This document shows positions 16 to 6,053 of a DNA stretch of 29,403 nucleotides, in pieces (the stretch's first letter is position 1; each line of letters opens with the position of its first letter). The stretch comes from a virus. Lineage: Duplodnaviria > Caudoviricetes. The stretch is taken from positions 1 to 29,403 of the IMG/VR virus record IMGVR_UViG_3300032295_001396; one strand, 5' to 3'. Position numbers and translations under genes: made by a program. The notes under the pieces were generated by a model. It was not told where the DNA came from and did no database searches. It saw only the letters and a program-made list of their open reading frames with translations.

Positions 16-219
16 TCAGGAATTATTATGTCCGTCATTTGTTGTTATTTTAATTTCTGTTTGTTTATTCTGTTCTTCCAAGTATCTCTCCTTGGCTTCT
101 TCATAAATCTTTTTCTTGAGCATCTCAAACTCCCAATACCCCTTCTTCATCTTCTCGTTTCTTGCTTTAACTCTCTTGTTATGTTCTTTTTTTCCGCCTC
201 TCAATTTACTTTTTGCCAT
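16..219 (-). CDS. Small basic hypothetical protein (67 aa)
   Basis: ORF track; Lys/Arg-rich N-terminus MAKSKLRGGKKEHNKRVKAR; start overlaps the end of the methyltransferase gene. Confidence 0.7.
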   Translation of the reverse strand: MAKSKLRGGKKEHNKRVKARNEKMKKGYWEFEMLKKKIYEEAKERYLEEQNKQTEIKITTNDGHNNS

Positions 220-1393
220 AGTTATTCTTTTCTAATTTCCATTTATATTCCCATAGTGTAAAGTTTCTCTTAAATCCACGAAGAATGTTTTTTATATTAT
301 TTACACAAGGTTTATCAAAGTGTTTTTCTATTTCAAGTGGGGTGTTGAATGATTGGATGAAGTTGTCGTCCATATCATACTGGTTGATTACATATTCTGG
401 TTCAAGTTTCCAAATAAACCCACCACGACTATCAAACTTTGTTCTGTTGTATGTCCTCATTATATCCCCATCCTGAACTCCTGTTGCTTTGGATGCTTCT
501 AATCTATTCTTGTAGTCCGCTATGTAATTACCATCAAGGTCATATTGAACTACTCTGTATTCATCCAACTCTTCACCTGATATTCTTTTTTTACCGAACT
601 CTGCGTATCTCTCATTCAACTCAAACCCGATGAAGTTTCTATTACCAATTTCATTACATGCTAATCCTGTCGTCATTATCCCACCGAATATATCAAGGAT
701 TGTATCCCCATCATCTGTGAGTAAGTTGATATAATATTTTGGTAAGTCCTTATGGAATGGTGCGGGGTGTTTTATTGAGTTGTCCCTTGCTGCTCCTGCT
801 GTTGAAAATCTCACCACATTATCAGGACGGATTTTATCACCAAGTATTCTGTTAGATTGTTCTTTAACTCTCTCACCATCAGTTATTCTACCTTGAACTA
901 AAACAACTTTACCACGAGCAAATCTCTCTGTTGAACCCTTTGATGGTTCTTCTAAAACTTTATCCATGTTAAACTTCAGGTTCTTTTGGTCTTTAACGAA
1001 GTGGAATATAAACTCTGTGGTATTTCTAAATCTCTTTGGACTACCATTAGGTATTCCGTTTCTCTTCCACCAAATGTAAGTGTCGTAAAACTTTAATTTG
1101 GTTTCCTTTTGACTACGATAAATTAGTTCGTAAATAAAGGGGTTTCTATACCCCGCCTTACAAGTATCGTTTATGTTTAGTATGAAACTACCACTCGGCT
1201 TTAAGACCCTCTGTATTTGACTAAAAATGGGTAATAACCAATCACAATAATCTTGAGGTTTCTGTATTGAGATGTTCTTACCATAATTCACTATGTCCGC
1301 ATAAGGTGGGGATGTGATAATCAGGTCTATTGAATTATCAGGTAATTCTTTAATCAACTCAAAACAATCTCCTATTTTAATTTCTGCTGGCAT
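206..1393 (-). CDS. Beta-class N4-C/N6-A DNA methyltransferase with two C-terminal NUMOD1-like DNA-binding modules
   Basis: GDC..LIK.LPDNSIDLIITSPPY (motif IV; SPPY is typical of N4-C enzymes), HPAPF, and motif I variant ILDIFGGIMTTG..IGFELNERY; C-terminal repeats VVQYDLDGNYIADY..GGFIWK and INQYDMDDNFIQSF..YKWK. Confidence 0.88.
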   Translation of the reverse strand: MPAEIKIGDCFELIKELPDNSIDLIITSPPYADIVNYGKNISIQKPQDYCDWLLPIFSQIQRVLKPSGSFILNINDTCKAGYRNPFIYELIYRSQKETKLKFYDTYIWWKRNGIPNGSPKRFRNTTEFIFHFVKDQKNLKFNMDKVLEEPSKGSTERFARGKVVLVQGRITDGERVKEQSNRILGDKIRPDNVVRFSTAGAARDNSIKHPAPFHKDLPKYYINLLTDDGDTILDIFGGIMTTGLACNEIGNRNFIGFELNERYAEFGKKRISGEELDEYRVVQYDLDGNYIADYKNRLEASKATGVQDGDIMRTYNRTKFDSRGGFIWKLEPEYVINQYDMDDNFIQSFNTPLEIEKHFDKPCVNNIKNILRGFKRNFTLWEYKWKLEKNNYGKK

Positions 1394-1996: not shown

Positions 1997-2144
1997 AGTT
2001 CCATCTTTTTTTGTTGCGTATTGAGTTTATGTGTTTTCTTGATACACCGAACATATCTGCGATTTCTCTATCAAATAGAATAGTATTATCACATAAGTCC
2101 CTGATGAGTTCAACATCTTTTTTATCTAATTTGATTAGTCCCAT
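1926..2144 (-). CDS. Stand-alone helix-turn-helix protein
   Basis: KLDKKDVELIR..REIADMFGVSRKHINSIRNKKRW resembles the C-terminal HTH of phage HNH endonucleases. Confidence 0.75.
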   Translation of the reverse strand: MGLIKLDKKDVELIRDLCDNTILFDREIADMFGVSRKHINSIRNKKRWNYEYGADTDDANRRAIERAVILHR

Positions 2145-2638
2145 TTTTCACTCCATTTTGATTTAACCCACGCCTTCATTTCGTTTATTGTTATTCGTAT
2201 TGAGTATCGTGGTATTTTAGTTTTCTTATGTATAGGTTCAATCTTCCTGTGTTCCATATACATCCTGAATAAACCCACATTATACCAGTTGTCGGGATTA
2301 TTCTTGAGTTCATCGTCAAGTAGAGAGTTTAACCATTCTACACTTGGTCTCTCTTGATAGGCGACATCTTCTTCATCAGGTATATCTAATGCTTCACTAC
2401 TGAAGTTTCTATATGTCTTCTTGAACTTTGAGTTATTGGAATAGAATTGATTGGTGATGGTTCTGGTTAGGAAATACATTTGTTCCTGTTCGGTCTGTAG
2501 GTTATTCCATTTCTCATTTGTTCCAAGTTGAATTAGAACATCATGTAGAAGGTCAATATACCTCTCGTCTCCTTTGGTTATTCGCTTTGCGAGTTCTTTG
2601 TATTGTTTGTATCGTTGTTCCAACATAAGTGGTTCCAA
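2135..2638 (-). CDS. ECF/sigma-70-like phage transcription factor
   Basis: Region-2-like LAKRITKGDERYIDLLHDVLIQL and region-4-like LFRMY..IHKKTKIPRYSIRITINEMK; 167 aa. Confidence 0.6.
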   Translation of the reverse strand: MEPLMLEQRYKQYKELAKRITKGDERYIDLLHDVLIQLGTNEKWNNLQTEQEQMYFLTRTITNQFYSNNSKFKKTYRNFSSEALDIPDEEDVAYQERPSVEWLNSLLDDELKNNPDNWYNVGLFRMYMEHRKIEPIHKKTKIPRYSIRITINEMKAWVKSKWSEKWD

Positions 2639-4084: not shown

Positions 4085-4119
4085 TTTAATAAATATAACA
4101 CAACATCTACAAAAGTCAA
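4085..4119 (-). promoter_or_regulatory. Promoter, copy 2 of a 35-bp direct repeat
   Basis: Minus strand TTTG-N19-TATATTTA; 34/35 identical to 3753..3787. Confidence 0.7.
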
Positions 4120-4192
4120 ATCCTACAAGAATATATTTTTTTATTTTTTTTATTTGGATATAATACTTACCTTCGTTGAAACAAAAAAAACT

Positions 4193-4799: not shown

Positions 4800-4873
4800 A
4801 AAAAAAAAGAGGGGAGGAATAATAGAATAATGGATAATGGAAGCACAATTAGAATTGTAAAGACCCCCCCTCT
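4800..4873 (-). terminator. Terminator/attenuator-like stem with a 46-nt loop
   Basis: AGAGGGGGGG (4873-4864) pairs with CCUCCCCUCU (4817-4808), followed by a U8 tract. Confidence 0.5.
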
Positions 4874-4879
4874 ATATCT

Positions 4880-5104
4880 TTAACTAAACTCAAACTGGCT
4901 GACTTCGTTGTCTCCGTTGAGTTTGTATTTTATCTTATGACCTATAAGGCCTGGCTGTATTGGTTCTTCAGTTTCAATTAGTAAAGGTTCATCTATACCT
5001 TCAAGAATTAGATTATAGAATAACTTACTTGGTCTTACTTGATTGTATTTCTTCTCTACTTTAATCAACTTACAATCTAAAATCTTATGTTCTTTACCTT
5101 TCAT
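4880..5104 (-). CDS. Hypothetical protein (74 aa)
   Basis: ORF track; preceded by the GATATTTATTAG motif. Confidence 0.7.
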   Translation of the reverse strand: MKGKEHKILDCKLIKVEKKYNQVRPSKLFYNLILEGIDEPLLIETEEPIQPGLIGHKIKYKLNGDNEVSQFEFS

Positions 5105-5105
5105 A

Positions 5106-5117
5106 CTAATAAATATC
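5106..5117 (-). promoter_or_regulatory. GATATTTATTAG phage promoter-like motif
   Basis: Identical 12-mer also found 2-3 nt before the ATGs at 8686, 16548 and 22225. Confidence 0.65.
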
Positions 5118-5133
5118 TAAAAAAATAAAAAAA

Positions 5134-5217
5134 TCAATTCTGTCTCCTTTTTCTTACTAATAAAACTGCTATAAAATAACCTATGAATATTTGTAATGCT
5201 AATAAATCTATTTTCAT
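5134..5217 (-). CDS. 27-aa single-pass membrane peptide (not in ORF track)
   Basis: Manual translation MKIDLLALQIFIGYFIAVLLVRKRRQN: hydrophobic stretch followed by a basic tail. Confidence 0.5.
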   Translation of the reverse strand: MKIDLLALQIFIGYFIAVLLVRKRRQN

Positions 5218-5220
5218 ACC

Positions 5221-5510
5221 AGTTGCTATTCTAATTCCTATTACCGAAGGTTCTTATTTACGGGTTGATATGTGAGTGCTTATCCCATAGTTTTCACTAT
5301 AGAATAACACACTCATAGTCATTACTTATTTGACTGGGAGGTTATAGTATCAAGGGAAACTATAACTTGGAAGCAACTTTAGATTGACCCTTCAACCTAT
5401 CTATTATACACCTTCTTCCTTTGTGCTGGTGCTGACTTGTAATATAGATTATCCCCTTGTAAGTCGTTAAAGAATAAACGCAAGTGTTATGTTTCCGCCC
5501 ATTTATTCCT
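5221..5510 (-). ncRNA. Candidate ~290-nt structured RNA of unknown family
   Basis: No ORF in the track; at least seven stems found by eye; the non-canonical pairs are G-U on the minus strand; GAAA tetraloop; 8-bp loop-loop complementarity; promoter immediately upstream. Confidence 0.65.
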
Positions 5511-5515
5511 AACAA

Positions 5516-5545
5516 TAAATATAACTAAAATTGGAAAAAGTCAAA
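5516..5545 (-). promoter_or_regulatory. Promoter for the structured RNA candidate
   Basis: TTTG (5545-5542)-N18-TATATTTA (5523-5516), same design as the 3753 and 4085 promoters; first stem starts at 5510. Confidence 0.6.
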
Positions 5546-6053
5546 TCAATCCCAACTCTTTTGGAGAATATTGGATAGATTTTTCGTAAGTTCTTTTTTT
5601 CTCTTTGAGATTGTATTTGAGACAGAACTGCTCATGTATGTTTTTCGTGAGGTCATACCCAATAGATTTGAGAAAACTATATGTCTCAAGCCAATCCTCT
5701 TTACTAACACTATACAAGGTTGGGCCTACTTCTCTTTTGATTAGTTTTTTCTTATTGGATTTTTCTTTTTTGATACACAGATTTCCACTACTAACACACT
5801 TCTTACATTTGCCAGAATATCCACTTGATACATTCCTGTTTTTGTAGTATTCAGTTAGGGGTTTCTGTTTTTGGCACGAACAACAAACCCTATTTCCTTC
5901 GTCTATTTTTTTTTCCATCTTTAATCCTTGTGATACGCAAACCTTACAAACTTTGCGTCTGTATCCGTTCTTACCTGTGATGGTATAACTTGTGATAGAT
6001 TTTTCCTTTTTACAAACCCCACAAATCTTCTTATTTTCGTCGTCTTTAATCAT
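5541..6053 (-). CDS. Double zinc-ribbon protein
   Basis: CGVCKKEK..CKVC and CCSCQKQKPLTEYY..CKKC, like the N-terminal Zn ribbons of phage HNH/endonuclease VII proteins; no nuclease motif seen. Confidence 0.75.
   Translation of the reverse strand: MIKDDENKKICGVCKKEKSITSYTITGKNGYRRKVCKVCVSQGLKMEKKIDEGNRVCCSCQKQKPLTEYYKNRNVSSGYSGKCKKCVSSGNLCIKKEKSNKKKLIKREVGPTLYSVSKEDWLETYSFLKSIGYDLTKNIHEQFCLKYNLKEKKRTYEKSIQYSPKELGLI

Follow-up and report, generated by a model that had tools for sequence, protein, structure and literature searches.

The phage DNA analysed here carries, at 5243–5510 on the minus strand, a conserved structured element of about 260 nt, termed RNA-A (alignments A1, A2 and A7; model R1), which is a real, uncatalogued structured RNA family with a predicted four-pseudoknot fold. 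RNA-A occupies the site of an initiator-like gene in related phages, and for this reason the RNA likely starts phage DNA replication. We hypothesize, and consider on balance probable, that RNA-A is a Rep-free, RNA-primed phage origin resembling ColE1 RNA II, in which the loop of helix P6 would base-pair with template DNA under the 3′ tail of the element. The first-pass annotation of this locus had recognized an uncatalogued structured phage RNA, a description supported by conservation, covariation and the lack of an Rfam match, and all of its sequences lie where it had placed them. It had also proposed a non-coding RNA, a ribozyme or a leader; a structured RNA it is, but the gene context points instead to a role that the annotation did not name, that of a stand-in for an initiator.

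The window, by which we mean the whole stretch of 29,403 nt, is a tailed phage genome (95% complete) with nearly all genes on the minus strand, among them genes for a portal, an XkdF-type protease, a tape measure protein, DUF6712, HNH and methylase proteins. No polymerase, primase, helicase or initiator was recognized among the 32 window ORFs scanned. The nearest cultured relatives of the portal are from Nonlabens phages, and this match (26% identity) suggests a Bacteroidota host. RNA-A lies between a Zn-ribbon (endonuclease VII-like) gene (5541–6053, minus strand; phrog_2633, E 8.7e-7), the upstream border of what we call the slot, and a gene of 74 aa (4880–5104, minus strand), the downstream border, which has a TATTTA box of its own at 5115–5110. 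The 437-nt gap also holds an ORF of 27 aa (5134–5217, minus strand), hydrophobic with a basic tail and with no PHROG match, whose predicted product is a putative small membrane peptide; akin small hydrophobic ORFs follow HTH- and B-type slots (see below), and since such ORFs are found behind initiator-type slots too, this one is not specific to RNA-A. Elsewhere in the window, 206–1393 (minus strand) encodes a DNA methylase (N6_N4_Mtase) fused to NUMOD1 domains, and the gene at 2135–2626 (minus strand), common to all eight genomes compared, has a weak match to Sigma70_r2 (E 0.048) and may encode a phage sigma-like factor. Tandem paralogues of 120–140 aa with a 'YSKGISWIDDCRIPF'-like start motif, up to five in a row, were seen in related genomes (G001:74–1979, G002:4884–5676, G008:29354–30727).

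Pattern scans recovered homologues of RNA-A, 19 on viral contigs and 15 on contigs from metagenomes; in some cases one and the same phage is present in both collections, and 35 records in all bear the element. The scans gave many chance matches, the real ones being 14 of 119, 15 of 29 and 15 of 34 (metagenome), and a looser final scan added two loci, neither of which matches model R1. Alignment A7 comprises 20 distinct sequences, equivalent to about 12.5 after weighting of near-copies. Conservation begins with P1 at 5510, extends as far as about 5253 and drops on both sides. The conserved element ends near 5253–5243, which reduces the approximately 290 nt first claimed for it to about 260 nt. 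In neither the window nor 15 related loci did any Rfam model reach its gathering score, the below-threshold matches at the locus being at chance level (E 3.4–9.8), and ARAGORN found no tRNA or tmRNA genes in the window; the first-pass annotation too had been unable to match the element to tRNA, tmRNA, RNase P or an intron. A blastn search of the element against 50,697 phages returned a single 29-nt chance match, and one against 72,556 plasmids returned none; a pattern scan of GTDB genomes gave no matches, and hence no host or prophage. A literature search found no description of RNA-A, although an unnamed listing among the candidate RNAs of two RNA surveys is possible. Three RNA-A motif strings are absent from six supplementary files of PMC10690425, and the word 'replication' is absent from the available part of preprint 10.64898/2026.09.22.753630.

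Folding of 5215–5515 was better than that of shuffled controls on the minus strand (z −2.47, matched or bettered by 2 of 100 shuffles) but not on the plus strand (z −0.77), and the conserved core alone gave z −3.7 versus −0.3 (30 shuffles). The structure was derived from a scan of all column pairs, followed by a count of pairs on the named structure. In A7, 95.5% of 1412 cells are paired and 51 of the 74 pairs show two-sided changes, a level reached by none of 500 shuffles, with slid controls at 35–48%; covariation among homologues, the check that the annotation had called for, is therefore present. Because A7 was fitted to nested stems, the nested-stem counts lean towards those stems; two-sided changes were already seen in 45 of 74 pairs when a plain MAFFT alignment (A2) was scored on an earlier form of the structure, and the pseudoknots were absent from the model to which A7 was fitted. 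The non-Watson–Crick pairs were said to be G-U on the minus strand rather than A-C, and the cells bear this out (107 G-U/U-G against 9 A-C/C-A), the count leaning towards the minus strand because the structure was drawn for it.

All coordinates of the fold refer to the minus strand. Of the stems proposed earlier, those here called P1, P2, P3, P4 and P5, and the hairpin of P8, are kept through changes on both sides. P1 (5510–5500/5480–5470) is two-sided in 10 of 10 pairs, and its loop contains a G-rich tract and one pseudoknot arm (PK3, below). P2 (5465–5461/5438–5434) is 100% paired with four of five pairs two-sided, and P3 (5432–5428/5412–5408) is 98% paired with three of five; the P3 loop, AGCACAA-GGAAGAA, is near-invariant by its alignment columns. 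P4 (5398–5393/5386–5381; 95.8% paired, 5/6 two-sided) and P5 (5366–5359/5348–5341; 95% paired, 7/8 two-sided) are followed by P6 and by the long P7/P8 hairpin (5272–5314; 89.5% paired, 8/15 two-sided) with its GAAA loop at 5295–5292, a GNRA loop capping P8 in 16 of the 20 homologues. P6 (AGUCA/UGACU), claimed as a stem of the element, is invariant where it can be aligned and is missing or replaced in 6–7 of the 20 sequences. A small 3-bp hairpin after the tail (5243–5251) is variable among homologues.

Four pseudoknots, L1–L2, L2–J3/4, L3–J4/5 and an L4–L5 kiss, are supported by the alignment. PK3 joins CUUG of the P1 loop (5484–5481) to CAAG of the P2 loop (5459–5456), 100% paired with three of four pairs two-sided. 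The P2 loop (5449–5444) also pairs with J3/4 (5404–5399) to form PK1 (100% paired, 5/6 two-sided), and GGAAG of the P3 loop (5419–5415) pairs with CUUCC of J4/5 (5373–5369) to form PK2 (100% paired, 2/5 two-sided), while the kissing pair PK4 links the P4 loop (5392–5388) with the P5 loop (5356–5352; 97% paired, 4/5 two-sided). The kissing interaction proposed in the first-pass annotation, 5459–5452 with 5358–5351, combines one arm of PK3 with one arm of PK4 and does not survive: it is 82.5% paired against 81.9% in shuffles, and one of its eight pairs is two-sided, a value reached by 128 of 500 shuffles. The long-range closing stem 5378–5372/5227–5221 must likewise be abandoned: of the 20 sequences, one of which is cut short, three have its 3′ arm, and its 5′ arm overlaps PK2. 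A candidate closing helix, P9 (GUUG 5377–5374/CAAC 5267–5264), would enclose P5–P8; 78 of 80 cells pair, with one-sided changes only, and GUUG is invariant. The all-column scan revealed no two-sided change between the G tracts of L1 or L2 and either CCC tract.

A promoter-like motif, TTTG-N18-TATATTTA, lies at 5516–5545 on the minus strand, 5–6 nt upstream of P1, and presumably resembles Bacteroidota promoters. The claim that the element has its own promoter is borne out as regards the motif, which in the form TTGACTTT-N12–16-TATATTTA occurs three times in the window and in none of 100 shuffles; a putative TATTTA box precedes P1 in 17 of the 20 homologues, two others having a variant and one being cut off there. 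A sigma-70 scan gave 2 sites against 3.7 expected, and no terminator was found on either strand between 4850 and 5650. No antisense promoter box is conserved among the 20 homologues, TATTTA[TA] boxes occurring on the opposite strand in three of them, at differing places, by a scan that other promoter types may escape. RNA-library contigs from two freshwater studies cover parts of the element, 5346–5503 in X1, where the contig extends a further 77 nt beyond the promoter side, and 5238–5415 in X2, and both runs additionally take in scattered portions of related phages; set X4 gave no match, and X5 gave 31-nt pieces only, elsewhere. As strand, start and level are not given, these contigs are evidence neither for nor against transcription.

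A direct repeat of 12–14 nt relates the P6 loop with its CCC flank to the 3′ tail of the element. The internal copy (5325–5338, minus strand) comprises CCC, the 5′ arm of P6 and the P6 loop and is the proposed DNA-pairing guide, and the tail copy (5253–5264, minus strand), 1–2 bases shorter, is the proposed start of an RNA:DNA hybrid. Both are CCC...AAAUAAG-like, without a G run. The internal copy best fits the tail of its own genome (score 360 against 250.8 ± 13.4; none of 20,000 permutations as good, 18 sequences), a test that is inflated by the relatedness of the sequences; for the seven divergent rows alone, 7 of 20,000 permutations were as good. The middle base of the repeat triplet requires three changes on a tree from which the repeat was left out, and it is the same in both copies in 19 of the 20 rows, the 20th resembling an alignment offset. 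No complementary RNA partner that co-varies with the repeat emerged from the all-column scan, and an RNA segment identical to a stretch downstream of it is able to pair at that stretch with the template strand of the DNA. For ColE1, pairing of an RNA stretch with the template strand is described in the available text of PMC4412123 as essential for the persistent hybrid. It follows that the two ColE1 stretches are direct repeats on the non-template strand. Two like sites in one molecule, and the invariant unpaired residues of the core (P3 loop, AAGUUGCU), might also be expected of a ribozyme acting in turn on the two repeat sites by cleavage, ligation or circularisation. We give this reading a very slight probability: no guide strand co-varies with the repeat, none of the Rfam ribozyme models (RNase P, group I/II, self-cleaving) matches the element, and the exclusion of initiators described below would go unexplained unless the cut makes the primer, in which case it is compatible with an RNA-primed origin.

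Evidence for such an origin comes from the slot. Of 56 loci with a DUF6712 gene, 16 stop short of it and 40 are informative, and these hold RNA-A in 11 cases, a DUF6291 gene in 12, an HTH gene in three, and elements that we call B, C and D in eight, four and one; the remaining locus, L194, has an empty slot of 42 nt and RNA-A 3.7 kb away. Exactly one filler is present in 39 of the 40 slots, and two fillers in none. DUF6291, on which the literature search found no paper, scored over the cut-off in 5 of the 16 slot proteins scanned. Slot proteins match a primosomal protein (E 3.4e-5), a replication initiation protein (E 3e-5, in G008) and, in L330 from a second scan, a DnaD-like loader (E 1.6e-9), as well as replisome-organiser and lambda-O-like families, and several match replication families weakly (E 0.002–0.008). 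The slots with initiator-like proteins carry iteron-like repeats. On a DUF6712 tree of 39 rows the slot types are scattered, the RNA label requiring nine changes for 11 rows, and the supported sister of the window carries DUF6291.

Several other features of the slots were noted in passing. Element B, about 215 nt and gene-free (L195:4986–5200; also in L166, L167, L169, L170, L174, L178, L179, L305, L319, L320 and L324), has 5 of 49 predicted pairs two-sided and no Rfam match in the loci scanned, and is present in complete genome G001, which is without an initiator. Element C (L202:3861–4200, L200:11911–12200; also L165, L206 and L294) is a gene-free filler of 300–400 nt with conserved blocks, and element D (L211:12080–12420, L317:3690–4010), also gene-free, has a direct repeat of 12–13 nt; its two copies lie 91 nt apart and are in agreement in any one genome. 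Elements B and C are preceded by a leader-like element of 110 nt that has hairpins and T runs (L179:3301–3410; also L166, L170, L195, L200, L294 and L319), and other leader-like hairpins precede the DUF6291 genes of L196 and L001. Behind several slot types lies a protein of 59–65 aa with W-x-x-G and C-terminal GF motifs and a weak match to a PHROG of unknown function (L245:312–494, L247:2742–2939, L267:496–681, L196:4904–5083); that it is a helicase-recruiting partner is a guess. CTAG is very scarce in the window, with one site in 29 kb, and likewise in several relatives; in CTAG-tolerant genomes it clusters behind RNA-A and in other slots, and in some avoiders CTGG is found there. Within 100 nt behind the tail, CTAG/CTGG number 35 against 7.2 expected (18 homologues, whole-genome background), and CTAG occurs 57 times in 24.0 kb of slots against 183 times in 356 kb of flanks, though it is lacking in 7 of 10 RNA-A slots, the window included. 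The CTAG/CTGG clusters, which we regard as no more than a lead, might be primase start sites.

RNA-A and initiators seem largely to exclude one another. Among 36 whole records DUF6291 is found in five and RNA-A in 18, never together, and neither DUF6291 nor phrog_270 nor phrog_186 was found in the complete RNA-A genomes G002, G005 and G012 or in the window, the gene lists of which contain no initiator-like ORF. The seven records that are at least 90% complete, three with RNA-A and one each with B, C, DUF6291 and HTH, share their other genes. The exception is L245, a metagenome contig of 1.2 kb on which RNA-A is followed by an HTH_36 initiator-like gene (phrog_270, E 1.6e-11); it is the only one of the 35 RNA-A records to combine the two, and 29 of the 35 hold at least 600 bases downstream. 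The search for co-occurring initiators used 11 initiator queries, all from the same slots, and most records are fragments; initiators of unsampled families may be missed. RNA-A might instead be a stand-alone, trans-acting phage RNA (a scaffold, decoy or regulator, comparable to GOLLD, ROOL or raiA) carried as cargo in a recombination hot spot, with replication started by another route, an explanation that we regard as rather unlikely. It would suit the ornate four-pseudoknot fold with its own promoter-like motif, the occurrence of RNA-A outside the slot in L194, L259 and L141 and beside an initiator in L245, and the readiness of the slot to accept plain cargo such as an HNH gene (L182) or a methylase (L211). 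It leaves unexplained, however, why each of the 40 informative loci shows one filler per genome, why initiators are missing from the complete genomes, and why the repeat differs from one genome to the next while its two copies match inside each, and the element is not accompanied by a tRNA cluster.

L245 bears also on the idea that RNA-A is a cis-regulatory leader, riboswitch-like or an attenuator, for the next gene, since the element precedes an initiator-like gene there; moreover it is located 5′ of same-strand ORFs, and other slots begin with leader-like hairpins ending in T runs. We nevertheless think a leader very improbable, as the next gene varies (the 27-aa peptide, a 106-aa ORF, a 60–65-aa protein, an HTH protein or none), the 74-aa gene is preceded by a promoter-like box of its own, and no terminator was found in the window.

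The same slot evidence would be expected of an origin acting as DNA, either as a folded single strand or as two iteron-like protein sites, and opened by transcription. HTH- and D-type slots too have two repeats, 91–102 nt apart; in the HTH-type slots L191:12305–12438 and L172:6076–6208 the separation is about 100 nt, and the first repeat contains eight consecutive Gs. Folded DNA tolerates G-T pairs as well. The available text of Weinberg 2017 allows that plasmid motifs may act as single-stranded DNA (PMC5737381). Against this, a GNRA loop in 16 of 20 homologues and four pseudoknots are RNA-like, and the promoter box keeps a constant, short spacing to P1. As a cognate partner the Zn-ribbon protein is not supported, its nearest neighbour having the same slot type in only 9 of 20 cases; it does not follow slot type, so that we see no evident partner among the phage proteins. 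To an origin of this kind we would give little probability.

Our working hypothesis of an RNA-primed origin is, then, that host RNA polymerase would start at the 5545–5516 motif and that the transcript would fold into P1–P8 and the four pseudoknots predicted from covariation. The P6 loop and its CCC flank, presented by the fold, may then pair with the template under the tail; by analogy with known systems the transcript would be held there in a persistent R-loop at about 5265–5250, and DNA synthesis may start either from its 3′ end or through host primase acting on the displaced strand. The enzymes would be those of the host, as neither a polymerase, a primase or a helicase nor an initiator was recognized in the phage. 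We count in favour of an origin the slot occupancy, the initiator-type slot proteins, the RNA/DUF6291 exclusion, the co-changing repeat and the scatter on the tree, with rG/dC pairing in ColE1 and the R-loop origins of T4 as precedents in the part of PMC4412123 available; we count against it L245, the weak protein matches, the plain cargo, the C/A-rich repeat, the lack of an antisense promoter box and the absence of a turn in GC skew at the RNA-A site. A wider proposal, which we offer tentatively as falling somewhat short of probable, is that this group of 30-kb tailed phages has repeatedly swapped its initiator cassette for unrelated folded RNAs of at least three families (A–C, perhaps D), with RNA-A as a self-targeting primer, a four-pseudoknot scaffold whose reprogrammable loop would pair with template DNA at the 3′ end of the RNA itself.

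The following comparisons rest on the portions of the cited papers that were available. Like ColE1 RNA II (PMC5043065, PMC4412123, PMC4555960), RNA-A would be a promoter-driven folded RNA of a replicon without an initiator protein, and an upstream stretch of it repeats origin sequence and can pair with the template, as shown in ColE1 and proposed for RNA-A. The ColE1-type combination of no initiator and a promoter-driven RNA at the origin appears to be present, judged by the promoter-like motif and the gene content, with L245 excepted. The two differ in that RNA-A belongs to a tailed phage rather than a plasmid, is about 260 nt rather than about 550, has a C/A-rich repeat where ColE1 has an rG stretch and dC template, and has no antisense RNA I that could be seen; homology to ColE1 RNA II/RNA I was rejected, with no Rfam match and no match in plasmids. 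Phage T4 oriF and oriG are likewise phage origins at which a promoter transcript forms a persistent priming hybrid (PMC4412123), as proposed for RNA-A; they consist, however, of a promoter and an unwinding element served by the phage's own replisome, whereas RNA-A is a pseudoknotted family that alternates with initiator genes, and its phage, of 30 kb, is without recognized replication enzymes. ARRPOF RNA (RF02933; PMC5737381, PMC12990946) is similar in size (about 255 nt), in having P1–P8 and four pseudoknots, and in its link to Rep-independent replication, proposed in the case of RNA-A, but is from a Fusobacterium plasmid, and its pseudoknots (among them 5′ end–L6, J4/5–L7 and an intermolecular P10; PMC12990946), compared by text description, are not the L1–L2, L2–J3/4, L3–J4/5 and L4–L5 of RNA-A. 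Its model was rejected, having no match at the locus and, in five records, a single match of 9.4 bits elsewhere (4116–4149) against a cut-off of 127.2. The marine RNA-based (MRB) replicons of Vibrionaceae (PMC3035462) share a Rep-less origin region encoding RNA, but have a 68-nt antisense RNA I with a terminator, of which none was found at RNA-A; their 110-bp core was rejected for want of a plasmid match and of a terminator in 4850–5650.

The GOLLD, ROOL, OLE, raiA and HEARO families are in Rfam 15, and all were rejected, since no Rfam model matched. GOLLD, ROOL and raiA (PMC12286853, PMC12968392, from the text available) are multi-pseudoknot non-coding RNAs, GOLLD and ROOL occurring in phages; compared with these two RNA-A is much shorter, and the window has no tRNA.

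Even if the origin reading fails, RNA-A stands as an RNA family not catalogued before, and covariation supports its four pseudoknots. For many ornate bacterial RNAs there is a structure without a function, and the gene context of RNA-A gives it a direct and testable one, for which the co-varying repeat provides a built-in rescue experiment. For RNA-mediated initiation, the available text of the 2010 paper on MRB replicons names only two families, both of plasmids (PMC3035462). On the wider proposal, RNA-initiated replicons would have been invented independently for a third time, and RNA-A would be the first ornate RNA in such a role in a phage. If our origin hypothesis is true, it would explain how replication starts in small phages without recognized replication genes, and a compact Rep-free origin for Bacteroidota would be possible.
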